In this document: positions 2,649 to 62,513 of the stretch, in pieces | Numbering within the stretch: the stretch's first letter is position 1 | Layout of the letters: each line of letters begins with the position of its first letter | Virus record (IMG/VR): IMGVR_UViG_3300010165_000001 | Coordinates: 76,165-140,164 of that record | DNA from: a virus | Direction: 5' to 3' (one strand) | Length of the DNA: 64,000 nucleotides | The notes under the pieces: model-generated | Database searches by the model: none | The model's input: the letters and a program-made list of their open reading frames with translations, nothing else | What the model was told of the DNA's origin: nothing | Made by a program: the position numbers and the translations under genes

Positions 2649-4193
2649 CTATATATTTAACATACCATATTTTGTGAATGGAATCAAATGTTTTTTATTA
2701 TATTTTTCTAGTATGTGTTTTATATCTCTCATATCTATGTCTAACCCTGTGTAGTAACCAAACATTCTTAAAGTATTATAGTCTATAATATCATTATAAG
2801 CATTTACAAAGTCTGCTCCTAATCGTATATCTGCTTCAGTATCAGTCAAACCTTCAATCTCTAAGACGTTGTTATTAAGAGGTCGGATTAACCCTATCCT
2901 TCTTAGATGTGCTACAGATAAAACTCTAGTTTGTTCTGAAAGAATTAAATCAATTAAATACATTCTTTGTAGAGGGAACATAGATAATCTATAAGTATTA
3001 GTAATTGTTTTAGGTGCATAACTATCTATAATTAGTAGCTTAACAAACCTATCTATCTTTTCTTTGTCCTCTTGTTCAAATTGTTTTATTTCTTCTTTGA
3101 ACGTTTGGTAATAATTAAGTAAGTGTTGTTGTTTCTGCTCGATTAATCCTATTTGATAATCTTCTAAATCCATAGCTACATTAAATACTGTATTAATATC
3201 ATAAGTTAAATGATGATAGTCTTTAATTAATAATAGCTTTAATTGTTGTAAGATTGTATCTTCATTATATTCAACTTCACTATTCATTCGTTGTGTGTAG
3301 TTAGTGAGTTGTCTATTATCACTATTCATACGATTTCTAATTGCATCCAGATATTTATAATAATTATCTATCTTTCTTTGTTCTGTAAACTCTACAGGTT
3401 GAGGTACAGGTTTATCTTCTTTACCTTGCTCAAACATAAAACTATGTGTACTAAATACATTTATCATAAATTTAATTATATCTATTTCATAAGATAGATG
3501 ATACAGGTATAGGAAATAACCATAAGTTGTGTTACCAAAGAAATCATCATTAAGAGTTTGTTGTCTTTCGTACTTAACAACTTGTTCTGCATAATAATTA
3601 GATTTAGCTTCTAAAGAAGAAATGTATTCTGGATATTCATTATTCTTAATTGCTTTCTCTGTTTGTTCTTTAAACTTTCTTTTTCTAACCTTTAAATGTA
3701 TTGTACAAAGCTTATCATATATTTTTGAAAGTATATAAGTCTTAAAATGTTTCTCTGGGTCTGAGGATACTTCAAAGACTTCTTTGGTTGGAAATCTACT
3801 ATATCTCATTCTAAAGTTCATTTCTTGAATTATTTTTCTTTCCTCATCTTTAATCGAATCAAAGACAACTTGTTCTTTAGGTGTTCTCTTATTCTCTTTT
3901 CTGTAAAATACCCTAGACCTCAAGTCTTTTGCATAATCACTATCAGATTCTATAATATTTTCGTTAGTATTGAGAAAATCTTGAAGGTCTACTTCTGTAT
4001 TAATAATAATATCTAAACCTTGTTTCTTCTTTTCTACTTTAATTTTATTCTCTTCTTCTAGTTGTTTTAGTCTACTATTTAATATAGGTATAGAGATACT
4101 TAATTTTTCAGCTAGTAATTTCTTAGTTCTTATATTAAATAATCTTTGCTTACTGTTTTCTTTTAAATATTTAAGTACTTCTTGCTTATCCAC
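2649..4193 (-). CDS. replication-associated (Rep-like) protein with N-terminal HTH
   Basis: 514-aa ORF between two helicase genes, as in K-like phages. N-terminal LLAEKLSISIPILNSRLKQLEE looks like a winged HTH. Confidence 0.45.
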   Translation of the reverse strand: MDKQEVLKYLKENSKQRLFNIRTKKLLAEKLSISIPILNSRLKQLEEENKIKVEKKKQGLDIIINTEVDLQDFLNTNENIIESDSDYAKDLRSRVFYRKENKRTPKEQVVFDSIKDEERKIIQEMNFRMRYSRFPTKEVFEVSSDPEKHFKTYILSKIYDKLCTIHLKVRKRKFKEQTEKAIKNNEYPEYISSLEAKSNYYAEQVVKYERQQTLNDDFFGNTTYGYFLYLYHLSYEIDIIKFMINVFSTHSFMFEQGKEDKPVPQPVEFTEQRKIDNYYKYLDAIRNRMNSDNRQLTNYTQRMNSEVEYNEDTILQQLKLLLIKDYHHLTYDINTVFNVAMDLEDYQIGLIEQKQQHLLNYYQTFKEEIKQFEQEDKEKIDRFVKLLIIDSYAPKTITNTYRLSMFPLQRMYLIDLILSEQTRVLSVAHLRRIGLIRPLNNNVLEIEGLTDTEADIRLGADFVNAYNDIIDYNTLRMFGYYTGLDIDMRDIKHILEKYNKKHLIPFTKYGMLNI

Positions 4194-4209
4194 ATTAACC
4201 CACCACTTT

Positions 4210-5955
4210 CTATTTTATTTCTCTTACTTCAAAGTTTTCGTTATCATAAATACTTCTTCTCTCTAAATAATGTTTATAGAGGAATTTGTTTGTCATGTCT
4301 ATAAAATCGTATATCTGTGTTGTATTATCTTCTTCTTTACGTCTTAAAGCACGACCTATTCTTTGTAATACTTGCCTTAAGGACTTTCCTCCTGCTGCAA
4401 TAATTAAAGTATTAATTCCAGAAATATCCACACCTTCATCTATAAGTGAAGTAGCAATAAGAACTTTAAGTTTACCTGACTTCATATCAGATAAATACTG
4501 TTTACGTTTATCTGTTTCTAAATCACCGTAAATAAATTCATGAGGAATATCATAACTTTCTAGTAATTCCGATATATTATTACCATGTTGTAAGAAATTA
4601 ACAATAATTAAAATACCTTTATTATCATAATAACACTTTTCTGTTATTTTTGCAACTAATGTATTTCTAAATTCATTATTCACAATACCTTTATCATATG
4701 CTACTTGGTATTGATTTTCTTCCTCTAAGTCAGTTGGGTTAGCTATAGGTATTGAATTGATTGTTGGTCTAGCTGATATTCCTCTTTCTATTAGATAATC
4801 ATTAGATACTTTAATAAGTATTTCTCCACATAATGCTTTTAGTCTCTGTACTGTTAGAGGGTCACTGTGGTCAATAGAACCTGTCAGTCCTATTTTGTAT
4901 AGAGCATTTTCACATTGTAATAAACTTGTATACCAAGTATCAGATTTAGCATGATGGAACTCATCACCAATGAAACATACAATACTCTGTAAGAAGTCTT
5001 TCATCTTGTAGTACTTATCATACTTCTTTTCATTTTTCTTTCTAAGGATTTCTTGGTACTTAACATTATACGTATTTAATTTCATCATTAATTCTGAATC
5101 TGATTTGTGGTCTTGATATATTTTAGTTAGTTCTTCTTTAAATGCTTGGTCTGCTTTTGTTTTAACTTTCATTTGTTCTAATATTAAGAATAACATTGTT
5201 CTCTTGTTAGGTGTTGTAGATAGTTTAGGTAATACCTGTAAAGCAACCTTCTTATAAATCATTTGTTTCTGGGTTAAAGTTACACCCTCACTTGGGTCTT
5301 TAAGATTTGCATTAACTGTAGGTATCATTACCACATTTACTTGTTTTATATCAAATGAACCTGCACCTATTTTACCTATAGGAATATTTAGCCTTTCTTT
5401 CATTCTGTCTGCTGTTTGATGGAATATTTCTTTACTGTGTGTGAAGAAAGCAATCGTTTCTCCTTTTTCTAAGTAAGGTAGAAGTTCTTGTATAATTCCT
5501 GCTGCTATCTCACTTTTCCCTGCATTAGTGGCTGCATTTAATATGCCATTATACTTAACTAGGGATTCTTCTACACCTTCTTGTTGATAGTCTCTTAGTG
5601 TAATTGTTCCTATCTTGTTATCTAATAACTTTATTTCTTTAGTTATATCTTCTGGTTCTAAGAAAGCTTCACTTCTTTCATCCACAACATCAAATTGGAA
5701 TGTATATCTATTCTGTAAATCGTATAATAATTCCTTTACTTGTTCTAAGAGACCACTAGGAAATCTATCTTTATCGAATTCATAGAAGTCTGTATATCCA
5801 TCCCATTTCTTAAGTTTAAATGCTTTAACAAACTGATAACCTTGTGCTCTTACGCCTATATGTGTATGAACCCTTTTTCTAAAAACCTCCCTTAACGTTT
5901 CTTCATTACCACCAAACTCCACGTAAGTATAAATATTTTGTAAATATAATTTCAT
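4210..5955 (-). CDS. superfamily 2 DNA helicase (DExH box)
   Basis: Motif I ATNAGKSEIAAG, motif II GDEFHH, motif VI QRIGRALRR. Start placed at the ATG at 5955 because AAAGGAG lies 5 nt upstream; the track TTG at 5970 overlaps that RBS. Confidence 0.8.
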   Translation of the reverse strand: MKLYLQNIYTYVEFGGNEETLREVFRKRVHTHIGVRAQGYQFVKAFKLKKWDGYTDFYEFDKDRFPSGLLEQVKELLYDLQNRYTFQFDVVDERSEAFLEPEDITKEIKLLDNKIGTITLRDYQQEGVEESLVKYNGILNAATNAGKSEIAAGIIQELLPYLEKGETIAFFTHSKEIFHQTADRMKERLNIPIGKIGAGSFDIKQVNVVMIPTVNANLKDPSEGVTLTQKQMIYKKVALQVLPKLSTTPNKRTMLFLILEQMKVKTKADQAFKEELTKIYQDHKSDSELMMKLNTYNVKYQEILRKKNEKKYDKYYKMKDFLQSIVCFIGDEFHHAKSDTWYTSLLQCENALYKIGLTGSIDHSDPLTVQRLKALCGEILIKVSNDYLIERGISARPTINSIPIANPTDLEEENQYQVAYDKGIVNNEFRNTLVAKITEKCYYDNKGILIIVNFLQHGNNISELLESYDIPHEFIYGDLETDKRKQYLSDMKSGKLKVLIATSLIDEGVDISGINTLIIAAGGKSLRQVLQRIGRALRRKEEDNTTQIYDFIDMTNKFLYKHYLERRSIYDNENFEVREIK

Positions 5956-6020
5956 TTGTTCTCCTTTCAATATTCATACCCACCATGTATTTATTATACC
6001 ATATAAGTTAAATTAAGTCA

Positions 6021-6050
6021 AAAAAAAAGATGCCTTTATTAAAAGGCATC
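6021..6050 (-). terminator. rho-independent terminator after the tail fibre genes
   Basis: GATGCCTTT/AAAGGCATC 9-bp stem (6029-6037/6042-6050) followed on the minus strand by T8 (6021-6028); overlaps the stop codon at 6039. Confidence 0.8.
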
Positions 6051-7424
6051 TATCATATTATAACCAATGATTCTGGTTACATATTGAGGTTTAGGGTTGT
6101 TTATAGCACTATCTTTAAGTTGGAAAGTATCATTTTTAAATTCCACACCAACTCTGTAGATGTTTTGTTCTGGTGGGCTTTCTCCTCCTACCATAGTTCC
6201 AGTTACTGCGTAATAACTTTCCCCGTCTCTGTAGAATTTGTGTGCTTTATTTTGAATATAGTCTTTACCTTTAGTAGCTTTATCTGTTCTCATTTTAGTA
6301 TATATTTCAACATAATCATAATTATTGATTGTATCTCTCATTGTTTGAGTTTTACCAACTGTAGTGAAACTCAAAGCCCCTTGCCATAAGACGTTTCCAC
6401 TTGGTGTAGTATTTGGAGTGGTGAAAGTGGAACTACTTATAGCTCCTGTAAATAATCGCCCACCATTGGTAATTGCGTAATAAATACCGTAACCACCTTC
6501 TGGTGTATCAGAAATTACCATTCCTCGGCTACTATACTTACCGGCAGGTGACTTATCTACGCCACCTTGACAATAGAAGGTAAACATTGTTTTACCTGTT
6601 TTTAACTTATTTAATACCGCTGTTTCCCAATCAATATCATCTGATTTATAAACAAATAAACCAAAGTTTGAATACTCTTTACCTGTCTCTGTAACACCTA
6701 CATCCCCTAATAAGAGGTTCTGTATTTCACTTGCATCTGTTTTATTTGTCTTCCAACCTATTGATGATTGAGATGAAGTTTTATACCCTGTATAGAACAT
6801 TCCTAATTCATTATTATAATATTCATAGTATTTATTATTATTGTTATCTACAAATATTTTAACAACACCTTCAGGATTTTTAATTTCTTCAGGTAAACCA
6901 GTACTATTATTTGTTAAGAAATAAGTACCAGGTTCAGCTGTATTTGATAAGTCTAAAGACTTACTAAAATATCTATTATTAGATAACGCATTAAAGTATA
7001 CCCACTCTGAGTTACCTTCTTGTGTAATAAACCTATAAACAACTTTACCATCTTCTAAGTTTTTACCTAATGTTGTGATTTGCTGAATAACTTCAGCTTC
7101 TCTTCTTGTAGGTTTTATTTCTATAATAGAATCACTTGTAATTAGAGATTTAGGTTTATCTGGTAATGTTGCTAATACAGATGCTGTCACATAATAAGTA
7201 CCTGCTTGAGTTAAGTCTGACAAGTATCTTATTGTCTTGCTTAAAGCTAATCCTGTATCTGTTGTTAGTTTGTATCTTTGTGAGTTTCCTAAAGAAGATT
7301 TTAAGTCATTAACTTGGGTGAAGATATTGCCTGATTTAGACAACTCCCCACCTATTTTATTAAGTTCTTCTGTGTATTTAAGGAAGGTATCAGTTTCTGT
7401 TATTCTGTTAAATTCTACAGCCAT
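6039..7424 (-). CDS. receptor-binding/tail fibre protein (461 aa), paralogue of 7852-9834
   Basis: Last structural gene before the replication module, as for the roughly 458-aa RBP of K-like phages. Shares N-terminal MA(V/F)EFN and C-terminal TFY(C/A)QGG blocks with the 660-aa ORF. Confidence 0.6.
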   Translation of the reverse strand: MAVEFNRITETDTFLKYTEELNKIGGELSKSGNIFTQVNDLKSSLGNSQRYKLTTDTGLALSKTIRYLSDLTQAGTYYVTASVLATLPDKPKSLITSDSIIEIKPTRREAEVIQQITTLGKNLEDGKVVYRFITQEGNSEWVYFNALSNNRYFSKSLDLSNTAEPGTYFLTNNSTGLPEEIKNPEGVVKIFVDNNNNKYYEYYNNELGMFYTGYKTSSQSSIGWKTNKTDASEIQNLLLGDVGVTETGKEYSNFGLFVYKSDDIDWETAVLNKLKTGKTMFTFYCQGGVDKSPAGKYSSRGMVISDTPEGGYGIYYAITNGGRLFTGAISSSTFTTPNTTPSGNVLWQGALSFTTVGKTQTMRDTINNYDYVEIYTKMRTDKATKGKDYIQNKAHKFYRDGESYYAVTGTMVGGESPPEQNIYRVGVEFKNDTFQLKDSAINNPKPQYVTRIIGYNMIDAF

Positions 7425-35092: not shown

Positions 35093-36098
35093 TTATGAGG
35101 CTTTATCTGATGCTGTAAGATAAGAAACAATTTTGTTACGAATAGAATCGTTATTTCTATCCTTCTATATGTTTCCATATAGTTCAGACTATATCATCAC
35201 CTTAAAATTGAAGGTGTCTCCCATTTCCAATCACTTGATTGTACGTCCGCAGACTAGTCGTTGCACGTTCTCTTGTTTTAAGAGCTTCGCTCATGATTGC
35301 CCTCAACATTACTTGTTAGGGGTTTCCATGAATTAGAGAGATTTGCTATAACCATTTCTGATTATAGGAGCTTTTTACCTACTCAATACTTTCTGTAATC
35401 ATTTCATTGGTATTAATTTCTTCGTCCAATATCTTCATACAAGGTCGTTAATCTTGTACAGTTCTCTAATGAACTTCTCTATGTTTCCATAGATGATGAG
35501 ACTATATCACAATCCTATAAGGATTCTTTTCTTTTCCATTTAACAAGGGTTTATTTGGTAATTACCCAACACCTTGACCACTTGGTTGTACACTTACTCC
35601 CTTTGAATAATCAATTAGGTTTCTGTTAGTCGTTTGGCATTTATGATTCTAGGAATCAATTTAGCACAGGATTGCCATATACTTAATGTACTTAGGTTTC
35701 CCTGTTTAGAAAAGTTTTTCGATAAGGATTACTCCTTAAAGCTACAACTTATTATAGTTATTTGCGCTGCAACCATGATAAGCTATGATTACACTCTTAG
35801 TTAAGTTATCTACAACTAAAATGTCGATAACATCTTTTTTAAGGATTTCTTCACCTAAAGAAGCATATCCTAATTTTGCGAAGTTTTCTTTTTTCATTCG
35901 TAATCTTTCTATCGTCACTGTACCTTCATATCTAAGGTAAACGTGTTCTTGTGGCATGATAGAACCAATTTCATATACGCCCTCAGTACCGTATTCACGT
36001 GTACCTGAAGCTGATTGAGCTCTGCCTACAATTTTACCCTTAATCATTAGATAGACGGTATTACCAGTGTGAATACTTTGTTTAGCTTCACTTGCCAT
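35093..36098 (-). CDS. tail tube protein (Twort orf142 homologue), three exons: 36098-35751, 35426-35381, 35127-35093
   Basis: The exons join in frame to exactly 142 aa (...SANNYN/DEEINTNEMITESIE/FSYLTASDKAS). Both 5' exons end in U and both introns end in G. The gene is immediately downstream of the sheath gene. Confidence 0.8.
35128..35380 (-). ncRNA. group I intron 2 of the tail tube gene (253 nt, no ORF)
   Basis: Segment by segment it resembles the crystallised Twort orf142-I2 ribozyme as I recall it: GGAAACCCCUAAC, GGGCAAUCAUGAGCGAAGCUCUUA, GUGCAACGACUAGUC, GAUAUAGUCUGAAC, CGUAACAAAAUUG with terminal G. Confidence 0.8.
35427..35750 (-). ncRNA. group I intron 1 of the tail tube gene (324 nt, no ORF)
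   Basis: P1 pairing: exon CUAUAAU with intron GUUGUAG. Core strings GGAAACCUAAG, GGCAAUCCUGUGCUAAAUU, AAAUGCCAAACGACUAA and GUGAUAUAGUCU match the Twort orf142 intron family. Confidence 0.75.
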
Positions 36099-46803: not shown

Positions 46804-49569
46804 TTATTTAATTGAACCCCAAAGCTTTCCTAAGCCTTGATTTGGAGGAGCTACGCCATTCCATGTACGTATAGGAAGATAATATCTTTTCCCTTTCCAA
46901 GTATAACCTACCCACACTAAAAAATCTTGCAACATAACTTCATCATAATCACAGTAACCTCCTGGTTGGAAGTTATAAGCTACTGGACAACTTCTAAATG
47001 GACCAGTTGTTCTAACTACAATAGGTTGATTACCATTAGTAAATCTAGCTTTCTCACTCATATACCACGTACCATAACTATTACGTTTCCATTTTCCTGC
47101 TACAGTTGATTTAGTATTACTTGCAGAACCTGTTTTATTAGATACAGTAGCTGTTGGTACTTTACCTGCTTGATAAGCTCTGATTTGCTTGATGAAATAA
47201 TCTTTAAGTTTAAGTTGTATTGCTTTTGAAGGTACGCCTTGTGTCACAGGGTCGAAACCAGTGTGTAGTTTCATACTTCTGTGAGGGCAGCTAGTCTGTG
47301 AAAATTCCATATGGAGTCTCACTGTATTACGGTTGGCTTTTAACCCCCACTTATTTAATAAACGTGCAGTTTCTTGAAATGCTGCTTGTTCATTTGCTAG
47401 GAATACTTTATCACTTGCACCAATAGATTGACATATCTCTATACCATAATAATTTTTATTACCATTTTGGTTAGCTGTATGCCATGCTATACGACTTTCT
47501 GGTAGTGCTTGATATACTGTATTACCACTGATATATGAATGAGCTACACCTGCTTCTAATCGAGATAAAGGTGCATTTACTAATCCATTATGATACGCTT
47601 CTGCTGTTGCACCTACACTACCCGCATCATTGTGTAGAACAATGCCTTTAGGTGTATATCCACGATTAGGTAAACGATAACCTTTTACTTCATCACGAAT
47701 ATAAGTTAGTTTTTTAGCTTTTTTCTTAGCTGTTGATTTTTTAGTTGTTGTTTTTTTAGTTGTTGTTTTTTTAGTTGTTGTTTTTTTACTTGGAGTTTTC
47801 GTTTTTGCCTCTTCTTTGTAATATGGTCTAATGAACCATTGAGGAAAATCGTATGTGTGTGTTACTCTTGTTGCTGCTTCCCAACCTGTTCCTCCTTTAG
47901 CTGAACCGCTTGTCCAACCTCCGCCTTGCCAATTCTGGTCAAGACTTACAAACTTCATTAAGTTTCCGTCAGCATTTCCATTTAAAACTATAGATACGTG
48001 ACCATACCCGCCACCGTAGGATGAGTTAAAAATTGCCAAGTCACCTGGTTTAGCTTTAAATGAAGATGTATTATTATATACCTTAGCTATACCTTTAAAA
48101 TTATTTGAGTTAGGTATGTCTTTTGCTCCTACACCTTTAAGACTTAAACCAAATAATTTATTCCAATATTCGTTAGCTAGGTCAAAACACTGGTACCCGT
48201 ACCCGATATGTTTACTAAGAACCCTTTCCATTTATATATTTCTATATAAACTTGTATAAATTCATAGTGATTATTAATTAATCCTTATAGGTTTCCTATA
48301 AGACCAGACTATATCATTATATAGGTTAAATAAATTTAAAAGTATACTTTTTTCCCTCTATGTTTTTACAGAATTCCCTTTTTCCTTCTGCTACTTCTTT
48401 AATATGACTTAGTGTAGCTATATTTAAAGACCTTTTTACCTCAGCCATAGATTTATATTCTTTATTTGTCTCAAAACAATAAAATTTAAGTGTTCCTCTA
48501 CCATCTTTATAATACTTATCATATATATTATACCTTTTTGCTAAAGTTATTACATAACCTAGGTCTACATTATATTTTTTAGATATTTGAAAAGCATTTA
48601 TACCTTTTTTGTAATCTTCTAGTATTTTCAATATATTCATATCTTTACCTTCTATTATAAGTTCTAGTATACTTTCTTTTCTTTTTCATCTATCGAAGGT
48701 AAAATACTCTCTTTTATTGAATCCTCTATATATTTAAAATAACTTTTAGAACAATCGAGTTCAACTAATTTTATATTATTTTCTTCACAATACTGTCTTT
48801 TTTCTTCATCAGATTGTTTAGTATTTTTATAAGAATCTACCCAATTAGAACTAATATTATTTGTATAATGTTGTTCACCATGTGTTTCGATTGCTATGTT
48901 TAGTTTTGGTAAATAAAAATCTATAAATCTATTTTTATTGTGAAGTTTATATTGATGTTCAAATTCTATATCTTTAGTCTTTAAATAAGAATATATAAAT
49001 CTTTCAGGGTAGCTCATGTAGTCTTTACAGTAAGGACAAGAAAAACCATTATTATATAAGTTATGTGCCCGAACCTTCTTTTCATATTTACAAATAGGAC
49101 ATACACAATCTATATACCTATCACTACCTCTACTGTAGTATTTTGCATCATTTTTATTTTTAAAATATTTTAATAAATGTGTTTCATTATAGAGGGAATT
49201 TTCTTTTTTTTACTCTTATGTTTTCACCTTTAAATTTCATTTTACATTTCTCCTATATACTCATCACTGTCCGTCAATTGACGATACTTAGTCGTTGAAC
49301 CTTATTCTTCTTTCACTATATCATGAGAATAAATTAATGTCAATAGTTAATCCAAAGAATCTTGGCTGCTGATTGCCTAATCCTTAGTATTTTTGAACTA
49401 TCACGCTTACCGTTACCAGTTACGTTGTAGTTACTAAGGCTCTAAAGGGTTCCCAGCAATTCAATGAGTTTTACATGGACTCGTAAGTTAATCCATCAAA
49501 ATCTATTTTCTTACCTTCTAAACTTTTGACAAATGCTACTGCTTCTTTTTCTGTGAGTTTTGCAACCAT
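46804..49569 (-). CDS. endolysin (CHAP, amidase_2, SH3b), two exons: 49569-49491 and 48203-46804
   Basis: Exon 1 ([26 protein letters not shown]) starts 1 nt after the holin stop. Splicing gives [23 protein letters not shown], parallel to the phi11-type lysin N-terminus as I recall it. Amidase (HNDAGS...) and SH3_5-like C-terminus follow; predicted length 492 aa. Confidence 0.8.
48326..49240 (-). pseudogene. zinc-finger plus Vsr/PD-(D/E)XK-like homing endonuclease gene broken into three reading frames
   Basis: ATG at 49240 after GGAGA. The frame is lost in an A8 run (49204-49211) and resumes through CPICK...CPYCK into ORF 48664-49017 (DFYLP...IETHGEQH). A stop follows, then ORF 48326-48640 (HTH plus C-terminal DNA-binding module) in a third frame. 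Confidence 0.65.
49315..49343 (-). promoter_or_regulatory. SigA-type promoter inside the lysin intron, upstream of the endonuclease gene
   Basis: On the minus strand: TTGACA (49343-49338), 17 nt, TATAGT (49320-49315), in the shared context ctATTGACATTa. Confidence 0.65.
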
Positions 49570-56595: not shown

Positions 56596-56803
56596 AGTTA
56601 CACACATAAAAAGAGGCGATAAAAGAATATCGAGTTCTTCAAGGGTATGCTCTATTTGTGGGAGAAGCTTATCAACATATGATAAACTAACAGGTAAAGC
56701 CTTTGCTTCACATGACCACCTACACTTAGTTTTCAGTGAAGTATTACAACTAGATATATGTCACAAACTAAGTGATTGTTATAAATACAAGAAAGAGGAG
56801 TGA
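56480..56803 (+). CDS. possible Cys/His-containing small protein; true start uncertain
   Basis: The track ORF overlaps the previous gene by 116 nt. The non-overlapping part (from about 56600) has CSICG...H.H..H...C but no canonical start after the AAGAGG at 56610. Confidence 0.3.
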   Translation: MVYQKRRFECELKFVRRVEENLKEKIKLTRNKLKRRASKVTHIKRGDKRISSSSRVCSICGRSLSTYDKLTGKAFASHDHLHLVFSEVLQLDICHKLSDCYKYKKEE

Positions 56804-56810
56804 TTTACTT

Positions 56811-57242
56811 TTGAAGTCAAGAGTAGATACGATGAGAAACCAACTCAAGCAAAAAAAGCGAGAGAATGAAGATGCTAATGAAGCTATATCCAATGGTTTT
56901 TTAAGTGTCATACAAAAACTTATGATTAAACTAGAAGATAAAGTCGAGCGTGGAGAAATCAATGTAAACGACACAAACGACATCTATAAATTATTAGTCA
57001 TGTACGGACAAATTAGTGAAATGAATGGTAACTCTTCAGGTGGTATGGGTACGCTACCTGCATTAGGAGAAAAAGAACGTGCTGTACTAAGTAACTTCGT
57101 TGAAACTACAGGTGAAGTAGATGAAGACGGAAATGAATATGTGGACTTAGATAAGTTATCTGAAATGACTGCCGATGAGGTAGCAGAAATGGTTACAGAA
57201 AAAGAGAAGCTTATGAATAAACAAAATGCGGAGACATTTTAA
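56811..57242 (+). CDS. hypothetical protein immediately upstream of terL (small terminase candidate by position only)
   Basis: TTG at 56811 lies 10 nt after GAAAGAGGAG. The track GTG at 56772 and the ATG at 56832 are alternative starts. The stop is 2 nt before the terL ATG. Confidence 0.45.
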   Translation: MKSRVDTMRNQLKQKKRENEDANEAISNGFLSVIQKLMIKLEDKVERGEINVNDTNDIYKLLVMYGQISEMNGNSSGGMGTLPALGEKERAVLSNFVETTGEVDEDGNEYVDLDKLSEMTADEVAEMVTEKEKLMNKQNAETF

Positions 57243-57244
57243 TT

Positions 57245-60200
57245 ATGAAAATGGATGGAAAACAATTAAAAGACTTACTCATATCCACATATGGAACTAC
57301 AAATGTTACCCAAGAACAATTAGATTATGTATTAACAATGTCTAGTACTACTGCTTATATGTTGAAACACAATTTAATACGTGGTCATAATATTACTTTT
57401 TCTATACCAAATAGAGATAAAAGTAAAGCTCAAGCTCATAGACCATAAATTTGCTGTGGTCTTTAAACTCTTCTTAAAATTGGAAACTCCTAACGTAAAG
57501 ACGAGGACAATCAATTGCTAAATTGACTTAATAAGTCATAAATGCCTAGAGACTAAAATTACTGGTAAGCTCATAAATGGTTGAGTGTAGAACAGTATAA
57601 GAAAGCTCTTTTTAAGAGAAGTAACAGAAGAGGGTTACTTACCTAAGAAAGTAACTATGAGATAGTCCAAACCCTTTAAATACTAGGAAACTAGGGGTAT
57701 AAAACGGGCAGATTGCCATAATAAATGATAAACACCCTAACATAGCAGTACTTAAATCGAGACAACTTGGATAAAAATTTGTTCAAGTAAAACCTTGTTA
57801 AACAGGGAAACTCCTAACAAGTAAAGTTGAGGACAATCCTGTGCTAAATTCAGTTACTAACTGATAAATGCCGAACGACTAAAATTACTGGTAAGCTCAT
57901 AAATGGTTGAGTGTAGAACAGTATAAAAGATTAATTTCGTAAAGCAAGGGGTTGTATAAACCGTAATTAAAATTATCTTTATACAATCAAGATATAGTCT
58001 AGTCCGTATATAAATATCACGAAAGTGACGGTATAAACGTAAGTGAAGTTGGATACAATAAGATGTTGCATTTTGCAGATACGCATAGTAAAGATTCGGT
58101 CAAGTGTATGTTCACCTTCAAGTAATTAGGGGAGGCTTTATACAGTAATGTATATCGAATAACTCTACTAAAATTGGAAACTCCTAACATGTAATGATGA
58201 GGACAATCAATTGCTAAATTCAGTTTAAACTGATAAATGCCTAACGACTAATCTTCTAGGTAAATATTCAAAAGGGAATATTGAGAACTAGATAAAAGGA
58301 TATTTAATCCGTAACGTAGAGAGTCCTTAACCAAAAATAAGGATTATGATATAGTCTACTCCGACTTTTAATTAAGTGTTAAAATACTAGGAAACTAGCG
58401 GTATACCCTAGACCCGACCAGTGACCAAATGCAGAAATTCGTACAAAGTAGGATAAATCCTACATTGCAACAACCTTATTTTGCAAGCATCATTAACCAA
58501 GATAATGACTCATTAAAATATAAACAAATAAGAAATTCAAGTATGTTCTTTAGAACAAGTTCTACACCTAAAGCTTTAGAGGGTGTTGATATTGATTACC
58601 TTTCCCTAATGTCTGGGGCTTTATACAGTAATGTATATCGAACAACCTTACTAAAATTGGAAACTCTAAACAGGTAAAGCTGTAGACAATCAATTGCTAA
58701 ATTGACTTAATAAGTCATAAATGCCTAACGACTAAGTTTACTAATAGTTATCTAAATGGAGATAATGAGAATAGTATAAGAAAACCTTTAATAGGAAGTA
58801 ACGTAAGGAATCCTTAACCAAAACTAAGGATTATAAGATAGTCTAATCCCTTTAAATACTAGGAAACTAGGGGTAAAAAACTTTAGAGACGAGTATGATA
58901 GAGTACCTTCATCATCAGAATCATCAGCAATGGAATCAATGTCAAGTTCACCTTTCAAGGTTATAAGACGGTGGTCAACACCAACCACACCAAATATGGG
59001 AATTCATAAACTCTATATGCAATCTGACCAATGGTATTATGGTCATAGATGTACACATTGTGATTACTTAAATGAAATGAGTTATGAAGACTATGACCCA
59101 GATAACTTAGAGAAGAGTGGAAATATCCTATTAGTCAATCCTGAAGGTGTTGACGAAATGGCTAAAACAGTGCAAGAAGGAAGTTACCAATTTGTTTGTC
59201 AAAAATGTGGTAAACTTCTAGATAGATGGTATAACGGAGAATGGCATAGTAAGTTTAGTGAAAGAACTAAAGGTGGAAAAGGAACAAGAGGTTATTTTAT
59301 TTCGCAGCTTAATGCTGTGTGGATAAGTGCTTCAGAACTCAAAGAAAAAGAAATGAACACTGAATCAACGCAATTATTTTATAACTATACATTGGGTTAG
59401 AGGAATAGCCCCTTTATACAGTAATGTATATCGAATAACTCTACTAAAATTGGGAACCCCTAACAGATAATGCTGAGGGCAATCAATTGCTAAATATTTA
59501 TTTTAACTATTGACATTACCTAAATAATGATATATAATTAAGATAGATTAAATGCCTAACGACTAAGTTTATAGGTAACTTACTAAATGAAGTAAGGTAG
59601 AACTATAAGAGAAGGTTAACGACCTGTAAAGTAGAGATTCCTTAGTCAAAATTAAGGAATATGATATAGTCTAGTCCGTATATAAATATCACGAAAGTGA
59701 CGGTAGTAACGTTTCCATACGAAGACCAGAAAATGAAAGTATTACAAGAAGATATTTACAACAATCAATCTCCTATTGCTAAGAAACAAATGTTTGATAG
59801 GGGAGATTATAAATTTATCGCAGCATCAGTGGATTGGGGTAATACTCACTGGTGTACTGTACATGGAATGACTGAAGATGGTAAGATAGACCTCATTAGA
59901 TTATTTAATGTTAAACGAAATAAAAACCCTAACATGGTTGAATCGGATATAGAAAAAATACGTGTAGAATTTTCTAAATATAACCCAGATATTATTGTAG
60001 CAGATACAGGAGACTCAGGAAACAACTTACTAAGACTCCAACAATACTTCGGTGAAGATATTGTGTTTGGTTGTACTTACAAATCATCTCCTAAATCTAC
60101 TGGACAAATTAAACCTGTGTTTAACGAGAATTCAAATATTGTTACTGTAGATAAATTGATGCAGAACAAAATTTATATCCAAGATTTAAAAACAGGTAGA

Positions 60201-61806
60201 ATAAGAATTTACCAAGAAAATGATAATGATAAAGCTATACTTCTTAAACATTGGCAAAATGTGGTCATCAGAGATGAAGAAGATAGCAAGACAGAAGAAA
60301 TGTATCAAGTAATCAAGAGAAAAGGTGACGATTTTTTAACACAATGGTCGTCAATAAACAGTGTTAAACGGGCGTAGTAAAATAATGTATAGATAAACAA
60401 TATACTGGTAAGAAACCCTAAACCTGACTATACACAGACAGTGGGAACCTACCGTGCTAAATTTTTAATTTAATTATTGACATTATATTTTTTTAATGTT
60501 ATTATTAAATTAGGATAAAAGCCTAACGACTAAATTTCTAGGTAGGTGTCTAAATGGAGACACTGAGAACTAGATAAAAGACTAAAACAATACAACCCAA
60601 AACAGGAGGTGAACAATAACAAATGACAGCTTTTAATACGGAATGGTTTTTAAATAGAATAAAAGAGGTAAGACCTAACGATTATCATGAATATGAGTTT
60701 TTAACTCCATACACTAAGTCAAGGGAGCCTATGAAAGCTAAACATATACCTTGTGGAAATATTGTAGATATGATACCTAACTCTTTTATAAGTAGAAACT
60801 CATCGTGCCCTATATGCAGTAGAAAATCTTCAACTGAAAAACAAAGAAAGACTCAAAAAGATTTTGAAGCATGGCTTCCTGAAGGTGTTATAAATATGGA
60901 AAAATATAAAGGTATGAATAAAGAAATAACATTTCATTGTTTCTTTTGTGATAGCACCTATAAAGTAAAACCAAGTAACTTAAGGGGTAGCGGTGGAGAA
61001 GGTACTAGATGTTCTAGATGTTCCAATAGATATAATAGAACTATAAAAGAGGTTGAAGATGAAATAAGAATAGAAACTAATGGTAAATACTCTCTAGTAT
61101 CTAAAAAGTATAAAAATGCTAACACTCCTATAGAAGTAAAACACCACGAATGTGGTAAAACTTATATGGTTTCTATGCACAACTTTAGAAAAGGTAGAAG
61201 ATGCCCTCATTGTAATTTGTCTATAGGTGAACAACTTGTAATAAATATATTACAAAAGAACGAAATACCTTATGAAGGTCAGAAAACATTTAAAGACTTA
61301 AGAAAAATAAATAACCTATCTTATGATTTCTATTTACCTGAATATAATGTTCTTATTGAGTATCAAGGAGAACAACACTTTAAACCCATTAAACATTTCG
61401 GAGGTCAAAAATCTTTTGAAGTACAAAAGGAAATAGATAATATAAAAAGGAATTATGCTTATGATAATGGATATAATCTTATAGAAATTCCATACACTTT
61501 AAGAGACCAAGAAGATATTTCCAAATTTTTATTTAAGGAATTAAAAGAAGTGTTTTAGTCGTAACACACTGAATTACTAACCAAAAATAGTAATTATGAT
61601 ATAGTCTAAACCCACTACTCTAAAAGTAGTGTTAAAGTATTACGAAAGTAAGGGTAATATTGCATTATAGTCAAGCAAGTATATATGCGAGAATTGGTCT
61701 ATCACGTCTAGAAGACTTGTACATTAAAAATAATGAAAATGAATTTGATTCTGTATTTATTAATACAAGTTATGAAGACAATAACGAATTCTTTTTAGAT
61801 GATTAA
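57245..61806 (+). CDS. terL: terminase large subunit, seven exons: 57245-57446, 57707-57772, 58040-58117, 58412-58607, 58887-59397, 59712-60332, 61663-61806
   Basis: The exons sum to 1818 nt, giving 605 aa in one frame. Splicing restores LKSRQLG/LSEVG (Walker A-like), IDYLSL/DEYD (Walker B) and RKGDD/HYSQASIYA (nuclease motif). Every 5' exon ends in U and every intron ends in G. Confidence 0.85.
57447..57706 (+). ncRNA. terL group I intron 1 (260 nt, no ORF)
   Basis: P1 pairing: exon AGACCAU with intron GUGGUCU (7 bp, U.G at the splice site). Core GGAAACUCCUAAC, GAGGACAAUCAAUUGCUAAAUU, AAAUGCCUAGAGACUAA. 3' hairpin CUAGGAAACUAG, then GGGUAUAAAACG. Confidence 0.8.
57773..58039 (+). ncRNA. terL group I intron 2 (267 nt, no ORF), splits the Walker A codons
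   Basis: P1 pairing: exon CUUGGAU with intron GUUCAAG (7 bp). Core GGGAAACUCCUAAC, AAAUGCCGAACGACUAA, GAUAUAGUCUAGUCC. Ends ...GACGGUAUAAACG. Confidence 0.8.
58118..58411 (+). ncRNA. terL group I intron 3 (294 nt, no ORF)
   Basis: P1 pairing: exon CCU with intron GGG. P2 module CUUUAUACAGUAAUGUAUAUCGAA is identical to the start of the Twort orf142-I2 ribozyme as I recall it. Core AAAUGCCUAACGACUAA, AUGAUAUAGUCUAC. Ends ...CCCUAG. Confidence 0.75.
58608..58886 (+). ncRNA. terL group I intron 4 (279 nt, no ORF), splits the Walker B codons
   Basis: P1 pairing: exon CCCU with intron GGGG. Same P2 module and the same core strings. Ends ...AACUUUAG. Confidence 0.75.
59398..59711 (+). ncRNA. terL group I intron 5 (314 nt, no ORF but with an internal consensus promoter)
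   Basis: P1 pairing: exon GGGU with intron (A)GCCC. Same P2 module. Its 3' 43 nt are identical to intron 2. Ends ...GACGGUAGUAACG. Confidence 0.75.
59510..59538 (+). promoter_or_regulatory. orphan consensus promoter inside ORF-less intron 5
   Basis: TTGACA (59510-59515), 17 nt, TATAAT (59533-59538), in the same ctATTGACATTa context as the endonuclease gene promoters. The intron core (AAAUGCCUAACGACUA) resumes a few nucleotides downstream. Confidence 0.6.
60477..60505 (+). promoter_or_regulatory. promoter of the intron 6 endonuclease gene
   Basis: TTGACA (60477-60482), 17 nt, TATTAT (60500-60505). AGGAGGTGA precedes the ATG at 60623. Confidence 0.65.
60623..61558 (+). CDS. intron-encoded homing endonuclease-like protein: three zinc-finger modules plus a Vsr/PD-(D/E)XK-like nuclease domain (311 aa)
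   Basis: C..(x)..CPIC, CFFC...CSRC and ECG...CPHC fingers, followed by YDFYLPEYNVLIEYQGEQH, paralogous to 53516-54763 and 48664-49017. Confidence 0.7.
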   Translation: MTAFNTEWFLNRIKEVRPNDYHEYEFLTPYTKSREPMKAKHIPCGNIVDMIPNSFISRNSSCPICSRKSSTEKQRKTQKDFEAWLPEGVINMEKYKGMNKEITFHCFFCDSTYKVKPSNLRGSGGEGTRCSRCSNRYNRTIKEVEDEIRIETNGKYSLVSKKYKNANTPIEVKHHECGKTYMVSMHNFRKGRRCPHCNLSIGEQLVINILQKNEIPYEGQKTFKDLRKINNLSYDFYLPEYNVLIEYQGEQHFKPIKHFGGQKSFEVQKEIDNIKRNYAYDNGYNLIEIPYTLRDQEDISKFLFKELKEVF

Positions 61807-61810
61807 AACT

Positions 61811-61840
61811 AAACCGTAAGTTTAAGGCTTACGGTTTTTA
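61811..61840 (+). terminator. rho-independent terminator after terL
   Basis: AAACCGTAAG/CTTACGGTTT 10-bp stem running into a T-run, 5 nt after the reconstructed TAA at 61804-61806. Confidence 0.8.
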
Positions 61841-62015
61841 TAAAGGAAAAATTTAGGTGGCGGTTGACATTGATATTATTTGGGTGTATAATAGGTTTTG
61901 TACTAATATTTTTAGTTACTCTATTTAAAAACCTATTACAATTAAAAAGAAAAGGGAAAATAGAATATAAACTAAGAGATATACAAAGAAAACTAAAATA
62001 AGGAGATTTATTATT

Positions 62016-62513
62016 ATGGAGAAAGTTTTAAACAATAACACATTAGAATCATTAATTAAGGGCTCAGACAATAAGGAAAAGGCTGTTGAAGAGTTTGTAA
62101 CAAACTTATCTGAGGTAGCTTATAATCTTTATTCTGAATATAAAGTATTATGGCAAGCACCTCAATCAGAAGAGCAAAAATACTATAGTCATCAATTACT
62201 TTTCCAAAGTCATCAAAATGACCCTCTAACTACAAAAGAACACAATAAAATGTTTAAGTTAGCTTTTGATAATAACTTAAATATTTATGAGATTAACGTT
62301 AAGTTCCGAGAAGAGGTTGAAAAAGGAAATGTACTACCTTTAGGTTCAAATATTAAAATCACAGATACAGCAGTAGGTAATATTTTATCTGGTAATGAAT
62401 ATAATTTTACAATTTCATTTATGGACAAAACATTATTTGAAGAAAAAGAACAAAAAGAAAAAGAGGCAGAAGAGAAAATAAAACAAAAATTAGAGGAGAG
62501 AAATAATGGGTAA
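62016..62513 (+). CDS. hypothetical protein (165 aa)
   Basis: AAGGAG RBS 8 nt upstream of the ATG; ORF track. Confidence 0.6.
   Translation: MEKVLNNNTLESLIKGSDNKEKAVEEFVTNLSEVAYNLYSEYKVLWQAPQSEEQKYYSHQLLFQSHQNDPLTTKEHNKMFKLAFDNNLNIYEINVKFREEVEKGNVLPLGSNIKITDTAVGNILSGNEYNFTISFMDKTLFEEKEQKEKEAEEKIKQKLEERNNG

Follow-up and report, generated by a model that had tools for sequence, protein, structure and literature searches.

The group I introns of phage T4 lie in td, nrdB and nrdD (sunY), genes of nucleotide metabolism that contain one intron each. In Staphylococcus phage Twort, orf142 is the tail-tube gene (tmpA) and carries self-splicing group I introns, three in number (Landthaler & Shub 1999, cited in PMC11878797 and PMC5526547); exon skipping is reported for it in the literature. 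The gene for the large terminase subunit (TerL) is interrupted in several groups of phages. In the kayviruses MSA6 and fRuSau02 it has one intron after amino acid (aa) 65, which encodes I-MsaI (PMC5618024), in the silviaviruses Romulus, Remus and KSAP7 it was described as split into orf1-orf6 (PMC7497331), and in Twort it is annotated as a joined coding sequence (CDS) of three pieces together with IepA and IepB (GenBank MT151386). The TerL genes of the Bastillevirinae have up to three introns (at most two or three per gene) associated with phrog_559 or VSR-type endonucleases, and in a polymerase gene exon skipping was demonstrated by experiment (PMC11878797). Here we describe the TerL gene in a 64,000-nucleotide (nt) stretch of the IMG/VR virus record IMGVR_UViG_3300010165_000001 (hereafter the window). 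With a probability of roughly 0.92, this region is a single TerL gene with six group I introns of the td/Twort IA2 type, which would be self-spliced to one mRNA.

The window originates from a myovirus of the Twortvirinae (Herelleviridae), a Baoshanvirus-like Staphylococcus phage. It is close to Staphylococcus phage vB_SurM-PSU4 (genus Baoshanvirus; 97.5 % identity across a 20-kb stretch), and no identical record was present in the GenBank phage set. Two independent JGI metagenome contigs, Ga0116604_10022 and Ga0212155_10030, contain the 4562-nt TerL region with 100 % identity, and fragments of it with 99.8-100 % identity are present in three further datasets. Thus, the arrangement is not a one-off assembly artefact.

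A preliminary description of this locus, made from the sequence alone, had proposed that four open reading frames (ORFs) and some unassigned pieces join into one TerL of 1818 nt and 605 aa. All four ORFs are present (57245-57448, 58429-58677, 58930-59400 and 59697-60377), and the proposed join was confirmed by protein tiling, by a single stop codon and by nucleotide-matched alleles of relatives. When the uninterrupted TerL of phage 812 (605 aa) was compared with the window using tblastn, seven successive blocks were observed with no residue missing (residues 1-65, 67-87, 88-114, 115-179, 180-349, 350-556 and 557-605). The TerL of Listeria phage LMSP-25 gave the same seven-block tiling. The corresponding exons, including the two short ones of 66 and 78 nt that had been reported before, are as follows.

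57245-57446, plus strand: TerL exon 1, 202 nt, covering aa 1-67 and one further nt; joined directly to exon 2 in phiSA_BS1 (BS1), phiSA_BS2 (BS2) and JDF86.
57707-57772, plus strand: TerL exon 2, 66 nt, WQIAIINDKHPNIAVLKSRQLG; joined directly to exon 3 in PSU4 (100 % identity).
58040-58117, plus strand: TerL exon 3, 78 nt (79 nt if the 5' splice site follows U58118); contiguous with exon 4 in BS1, JDF86, RSM-J51Sa and Golestan101.
58412-58607, plus strand: TerL exon 4, 196 nt; contiguous with exon 5 in PSU4, RSM-J51Sa and Golestan101.
58887-59397, plus strand: TerL exon 5, 511 nt; 81 % identity to phage 812 in its block.
59712-60332, plus strand: TerL exon 6, 621 nt, encoding the greater part of the nuclease domain; joined directly to exon 7 in every Baoshanvirus relative.
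61663-61806, plus strand: TerL exon 7, 144 nt including the stop codon.

Together, the seven exons amount to 1818 nt, which encode a protein of 605 aa and have one stop codon, at the end. The spliced product is 67 % identical to phage 812 TerL over its full length, and its alignment with three intact TerL proteins (67 %, 59 % and 53 % identity) was gap-free at every junction, a check that had been suggested with the original proposal. The strongest evidence for the predicted exon structure comes from intron-less alleles: for all six sites, at least three close relatives have a contiguous allele that matches at the nucleotide level without gaps across the junction. In phiSA_BS1, for example, exons 1-4 form one ORF, and in PSU4 exons 4-5 and exons 6-7 are joined. 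The spliced product matches Pfam GpA_ATPase (PF05876) over residues 74-293 with 79.5 bits (cutoff 25.6). The Terminase_6C match, at 16.5 bits, is under its cutoff.

The six intervening sequences are listed below; scores are for the Rfam group I model RF00028 (gathering score 50 bits), with each intron scanned singly under laxer filters.

57447-57706, plus strand: intron 1, 260 nt, no ORF, phase 1, no P2; 32.8 bits (E 6e-7); 66/66 canonical pairs in P1-P9; P1 AGACCAU/GUGGUCU, P10 GGCA/UGCU; an in-frame UAA straddles the 5' splice site.
57773-58039, plus strand: intron 2, 267 nt, no ORF, phase 1, inside KSRQLG|LS; 55.4 bits (E 1e-13); P1 CUUGGAU/GUUCAAG.
58118-58411 (58119-58412 in the other register), plus strand: intron 3, 294 nt, no ORF, phase 1; 44.2 bits (E 2.8e-10).
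58608-58886, plus strand: intron 4, 279 nt, no ORF, phase 2, inside YLSL|DE; 28.0 bits (E 1.9e-5); 67/67 canonical pairs; P1 CCCU/GGGG, P10 AGAC/GUCU.
59398-59711, plus strand: intron 5, 314 nt, no ORF, phase 0; 30.3 bits (E 4.5e-6); P1 GGGU/GCCC.
60333-61662, plus strand: intron 6, 1330 nt, phase 0, inside KGDD|HY; matched by half-models (see below); 81/81 canonical pairs; P1 GACGAU/GUCGUC, P10 CAUU/AAUG, P3 CAGUGU/ACACUG.

The RF00028 match spans the full model for introns 2-5, and its 5' end is cut off for intron 1. In the cmscan alignments, a 70-90-nt insertion relative to the Rfam model lies between P7 and P3'. It corresponds to the IA2 hairpins P7.1 and P7.2, and the low Rfam scores are due to it. 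P7.1 and P7.1a were found in 6/6 introns and P7.2 in introns 1, 3, 4, 5 and 6, with a weak P7.2 in intron 2. When introns 1-5 were folded together using RNAalifold, P4, P5, P6a, P7, P7.1, P7.1a, P8 and P9a were obtained, and 29 of the 53 pairs stay paired despite changes on both sides, a count to be read with the caveat that the compared introns are paralogues. P1-P9 helices were also assigned by hand, partly by eye, in all six introns and are taken as supporting evidence: all pairs are canonical (62-81 bp in each intron), and P3, P5, P7.1 and P8 show 2-4 pair types per position. The core strings AAAUGCCUAACGACUA and GAUAUAGUCU and the P7.1/P7.2 IA2 architecture presumably resemble those of the T4 td intron. 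Likewise, we take the P2 element of introns 3-5, CUUUAUACAGUAAUGUAUAUCGAA, to be that of the Twort ribozyme.

In the case of intron 6, Rfam gave no match to a single 1366-nt piece, as expected given its 1-kb insertion. Two half-models (5' core and 3' core), built from introns 1-5 only and thus excluding intron 6, were used instead. They matched intron 6 at 60420-60577 (64.3 bits, E 3e-12) and 61560-61663 (74.6 bits, E 6e-12), on both sides of the ORF at 60623-61558. Elsewhere in the 64-kb window, the half-models match only the two Rfam-confirmed introns at 35 kb. By sequence and predicted fold, all six intervening sequences are group I introns with a td/Twort-like IA2 core.

All six introns have a P1 of 4-7 bp with a terminal U.G pair, and the three P1 pairings cited in the preliminary description (introns 1, 2 and 6) are present, each with the U.G wobble. 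In four introns P10 adjoins P1 in the guide (UGCU|GUGGUCU, GUCU|GGGG, GGAA..GCCC and AAUG|GUCGUC). The phases of introns 1 to 6 are 1, 1, 1, 2, 0 and 0, and an in-frame stop occurs 0-23 codons past each 5' splice site. The rule that the 5' exon ends in U and the intron in G was found for introns 1, 2, 4, 5 and 6, which end in G unambiguously; it is not clean for intron 3 (see below).

The proposal that the introns lie in highly conserved blocks was borne out. Within 6 aa on either side of the six sites, the mean fraction of invariant residues is 0.69, compared to 0.45 in random windows (permutation P ~0.0008). Introns 2, 4 and 6 interrupt KSRQLG|LS, YLSL|DE and KGDD|HY, respectively, and KSRQLGLS, YLSLDE and GDDH are invariant in a four-sequence TerL alignment. 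We assume that these strings fit the deviant Walker A, hhhhDE and DD-nuclease patterns of the terminase literature. The sites were thus located correctly at first sight, and the labels Walker A, Walker B and nuclease, by which they had been called catalytic, are putative ones based on sequence pattern and the Pfam GpA_ATPase span. When phmmer and a four-sequence profile were used against the PDB, no terminase match was obtained to anchor the motifs in a solved structure, and only spurious matches to de novo TIM-barrels were found. Introns 1-3 share phase 1 and the lengths of exons 2 and 3 are divisible by three, so that exon skipping would be possible in principle.

Intron numbers in the TerL genes of relatives were determined by protein tiling and the two intron models, with the following results.

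JDF86: 2 introns.
BS1 and BS2: 3 introns each.
Twort: 3 introns.
PSU4, RSM-J51Sa, Golestan101 and Romulus: 5 introns each.
The window: 6 introns.
IMGVR_UViG_3300020227_000045: 7 introns.

In many kayviruses TerL is uninterrupted. The claim that six introns are an extreme case was overstated, as five introns are present in four GenBank relatives and seven in one IMG/VR genome. The TerL proteins of the Baoshanvirus relatives and of this IMG/VR genome are 87-98 % identical. Pooled in the numbering of the window, the introns occupy about 15 distinct insertion sites in one 1.8-kb gene (~67, 70, 73, 89, 115, 117, 175, 180, 182, 213, 295, ~300, 325, 351 and 558).

In UViG_3300020227_000045, TerL lies on the reverse complement of 3129-6919, and its seven introns, all ORF-less and 246-351 nt long, follow aa 73, 89, 115, 175, 182, 213 and 325. 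Two of them enclose, in the putative Walker B region, a micro-exon of 21 nt with the sequence ATTGATTATTTGTCACTGGAT (IDYLSLD). After splicing, the product would have 605 aa, of which 592 are identical to TerL of the window. In the case of Twort (MT151386.1, 2031-6674), the three joined pieces in GenBank imply two introns, and protein tiling and the 3'-core model gave four exons and three intron cores, whose 3' ends lie at 2491, 3806 and 5748. The record may have merged, or left without annotation, a small intron that follows aa 70 and has no ORF. The NAV|WISA intron of relatives (aa 325; L001, 5336-5579; L011, 8837-9080; UViG_3300020227_000045, reverse complement of 5830-6075) is of a different subtype that resembles the tail-tube introns; it scored 23 bits with the 5'-core model and did not match the 3'-core model. 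Thus, TerL in this clade hosts at least two intron lineages.

Intron 1 is shared with PSU4, RSM-J51Sa and Golestan101 (98.5 % identical in PSU4 and RSM-J51Sa), intron 3 with BS2 (96 % identical at the same site) and UViG_3300020227_000045, and intron 5 with PSU4 and Golestan101 (99.4 % identical in the latter). The RSM-J51Sa version of intron 5 has an inserted ORF of ~1 kb. No orthologue of intron 4 at its exact site (nt 542) was found in GenBank phages, where the best match is ~80 % identical; Romulus, BS1, BS2 and JDF86 have introns a few nt from this site, after aa 175 and after aa 182. Homologues of intron 6 were found only in Silviavirus, at the same site in Romulus and KSAP7 with ~70 % identity. 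An exact-match search of IMG/VR with the 5' junctions of introns 4 and 6 returned none.

Introns 1-5 have no ORF, and relatives have endonuclease-bearing forms of introns 2 and 5. RSM-J51Sa, Golestan101 and Twort contain an endonuclease-bearing intron at the intron 2 site, and the 3' 101 nt of intron 2 are 98-99 % identical to that intron in RSM-J51Sa and Golestan101. The introns of the window also share modules with each other. Introns 1 and 4 have the same P6a (100 % identity) and introns 1 and 2 the same P7.1 (100 % identity), the P9 of intron 5 is 95 % identical to that of intron 2, and introns 3-5 have the P2 module in common. Such sharing points to recombination among the introns. Intron 2 itself looks recombinant, with a middle part like that of intron 1 and a 3' part of the endonuclease-bearing type. 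This composition suggests that its endonuclease was lost through recombination with the neighbouring intron 326 nt upstream.

Three further features were observed within introns 5 and 6.

60623-61558, plus strand: candidate intron-encoded homing endonuclease of 311 aa with zinc ribbons and a Vsr-like nuclease domain (PHROGs).
60477-60505, plus strand: promoter-like site ahead of the endonuclease ORF, within the P6a of intron 6; TTGACA-17-TATTAT with extended -10 TG, 11/12.
59510-59538, plus strand: sigma-70 consensus in P6a of intron 5; TTGACA-17-TATAAT, 12/12.

The endonuclease ORF matched phrog_559 with 263.8 bits, and also phrog_9084 ('homing endonuclease') and phrog_7140 ('intron encoded nuclease'). 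Phrog_559 is listed as the VSR-type endonuclease of TerL introns (PMC11878797), and the homologue in KSAP7 (Silviavirus) is annotated 'group I intron-associated VSR homing endonuclease'. Searches of Pfam, NCBIfam and the PDB with this ORF gave weak zinc-ribbon matches only. The ORF is located within the loop of an 8-bp P7.2 stem (GACUAAAA/UUUUAGUC), and AGGAGG is found 11 nt before its ATG. The GDD|HY site is intron-less in all Baoshanvirus relatives (PSU4 allele GGTGATGAC|CATTATAG). With an ORF in a peripheral loop and with intron-less alleles, intron 6 bears the marks of a mobile intron, and cleavage by its endonuclease is predicted.

Introns 5 and 6 both have an enlarged P6a hairpin, and the two hairpins share 76 % identity. 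A transcript starting at the promoter-like site of intron 5 would be unable to splice this intron. The site appears to be a remnant of the form with an ORF that is present in RSM-J51Sa, with promoter activity suggested by the consensus match.

We propose that the whole gene would be transcribed as one pre-mRNA, in which each intron would form the core helices P1-P9 together with P7.1 and P7.2, the IA2 hairpins. The guide would pair with the end of the upstream exon (P1, with the U.G wobble) and usually also with the start of the downstream exon (P10), and guanosine-initiated self-splicing would join the exons to the 1818-nt mRNA for the 605-aa TerL. Intron 6 carries the VSR-type endonuclease gene in the P7.2 loop, with its own promoter-like site and ribosome-binding site. 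The introns may lie in the most conserved blocks because such sequences would be stable targets for homing endonucleases, and they could spread between co-infecting relatives through homing and recombination, from which the presence/absence pattern across relatives and the mosaic introns would follow.

The same introns could be regulatory and not purely selfish, i.e., they would splice, at least some with a protein cofactor or in concert, and TerL would be timed or throttled in this way. An essential late protein is made only if each of six ribozyme reactions in sequence is successful, a perfect sigma-70 consensus is present in intron 5 without an ORF, intron 6 has a near-consensus promoter, and introns are discussed as possible on-switches (PMC11878797). 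However, viable close relatives have 2-7 introns at differing sites and kayviruses have none, and the promoter of intron 5 is accounted for as a remnant of the endonuclease-bearing version in RSM-J51Sa. We consider a regulatory role improbable on these grounds.

Several observations weigh against a single TerL gene with six self-splicing introns. Splicing, like homing and promoter use, is a process that we infer from the sequence. When the whole window was scanned with Rfam at the gathering threshold, no group I match was obtained in 57000-62100, and a permissive scan (E<=10) restricted to 57000-62100 gave no group I match either. Among introns 1-5 scanned singly, four scored under the gathering score and only intron 2 was above it. 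The P4-P5 region of intron 6 is divergent and its fold is tentative. Introns 4 and 6 are absent from all cultured same-genus relatives, so that no viable isolate of the genus independently attests to their function. Finally, a canonical P1/P10 register, a terminal G and the reading frame are not jointly satisfiable in intron 3.

The Rfam blank in this region is an artefact of the filter and the insertion and not evidence of absence. A covariance-model search had been named as the check on the group I cores in the preliminary description; introns 1-5 do match singly, and on the whole-window blank the group I claim would have been given up wrongly. As for viability, near-identical introns are present in isolated viable phages in the case of intron 1 (PSU4), intron 3 (BS2) and intron 5 (Golestan101).

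The conflict in intron 3 arises from its guide. The eight bases before CUUUAUACAG consist of the P10 strand followed by the P1 strand in introns 4 and 5, and likewise in the introns that relatives have at the WSTP site. In intron 3, these eight bases are A-GGG-GAGG, complementary to CCUU|CCC, which corresponds to the intron-less ACC TTC CCN (Phe) in all homologues. The junction predicted from the guide thus encodes Phe, with P1 CCUU/GAGG and an intron ending in A58412. When the terminal-G rule is applied (last G at 58411), the junction is ACCU|ACCC and encodes Tyr, with the 5' cut after U58117 and a P1 of UCACCU/GGGAGG with an A.A mismatch; this junction is the one implied in the preliminary description. 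A cut after U58118 joined to G58411 would shift the reading frame. AGACCC is found at the 3' junction of intron 3 in all three available sequences (the window, phiSA_BS2 and UViG_3300020227_000045). We lean slightly to the Tyr reading because every other intron of this P9 type in IMG/VR ends in G. Either an omega-A intron works in vivo, or P1 is shifted, or only some transcripts are spliced in frame. It is somewhat unlikely, in our judgement, that intron 3 is a natural group I intron breaking the canonical splice-site rules in an essential gene.

These data also bear on the explanation that TerL is decaying or non-functional, in which at least one ORF-less intron (especially intron 3 or 4) would no longer splice and the phage would be defective or helper-dependent. 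The frame shift between the canonical 5' site (U58118) and the canonical 3' site (G58411) of intron 3 would fit such decay, as would the lowest Rfam score (28 bits) and the missing orthologue at the site of intron 4. This is nevertheless very unlikely, as all exons are intact and 98 % identical to PSU4 TerL, the AGACCC of intron 3 is likewise present in phiSA_BS2, an isolated phage, and in one more genome, the region was recovered unchanged from two metagenome contigs with fragments in three further datasets, and the core of intron 4 is complete, with all of its 67 pairs canonical plus P1 and P10.

Gene callers annotate the exons of relatives as separate 'terminase large subunit' CDSs, but it is barely conceivable that the intervening sequences are kept in the RNA and TerL is built at the protein level (inteins, bypassing or separate polypeptides), as stops occur in frame within 0-23 codons of the junctions, intein motifs were found in none and group I cores in all of the intervening sequences, neither exon 2 nor exon 3 has a start codon or a ribosome-binding site, and the codons split by phases 1 and 2 are repairable by RNA splicing alone. 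Inteins, frameshifting and a fragmented multi-subunit TerL were rejected on account of the in-frame stops, the split codons and the ribozyme cores.

Two features flank the TerL gene.

56772-57242, plus strand: small terminase subunit gene (TerS), upstream; phrog_1063 with 142.7 bits, positioned as the annotated TerS of phiSA_BS1.
61811-61837, no strand assigned: terminator-like hairpin directly 3' of TerL, a 10-bp stem followed by a T run.

In the window, the homologue of Twort orf142 (gene at 35100-36098, minus strand) has two group I introns, compared to three in Twort. They are located at 35165-35397 and 35477-35763 (minus strand) and scored 96.4 and 75.2 bits with RF00028. This gene is located immediately downstream of the tail sheath gene, and its first exon matches phrog_985, a virion structural family of 141 positions. 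A match to the Staphylococcus small RNA S808 (RF02897; 80.2 bits, gathering score 76) was also observed in the phage structural region (46985-47239, minus strand).

With six (or seven) ribozymes in an essential gene of 1.8 kb and internal exons of 21-78 nt, the intron load is near the top of what we found reported for protein genes of phages or bacteria. No paper on six or seven introns in one phage gene was found in our literature search, and a search for Baoshanvirus together with introns also found none. Near-identical phages with 0 to 7 TerL introns offer a compact natural system to study intron invasion, endonuclease loss and recombination, and TerL of the Twortvirinae also suits questions of neighbouring-ribozyme folding and exon skipping. 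Gene callers split such a TerL into 'hypothetical proteins' and a default Rfam scan misses the introns. Therefore, TerL phylogenies and annotations of this clade need intron-aware handling.

When compared with the known systems, TerL of the window is like Twort orf142 in that several IA2-type introns are found in one late structural or packaging gene with short internal exons, and unlike it in that orf142 is a tail-tube gene with three introns and the gene described here is TerL with six. The preliminary description had used orf142 as a precedent for TerL. As a part of TerL it was rejected, since it is the tail-tube gene, and TerL introns are already documented in kayviruses, Twort and silviaviruses. 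The sister subfamily Bastillevirinae, which infects Bacillus hosts, has introns in both TerL and DNA polymerase (PMC11878797). The window shares the HRP|W site with MSA6, the QLG|LS site with Twort and the GDD|HY site with Romulus, whose intron at GDD|HY has a homologous VSR-type endonuclease and ~70 % identical DNA. Compared to other TerL genes of the Twortvirinae, six sites are combined in this allele, and intron 4 at nt 542 was not found at the exact position elsewhere. TerL of the window is thus a heavily loaded case of the known Twort-like habit of TerL introns, and not the most extreme one.

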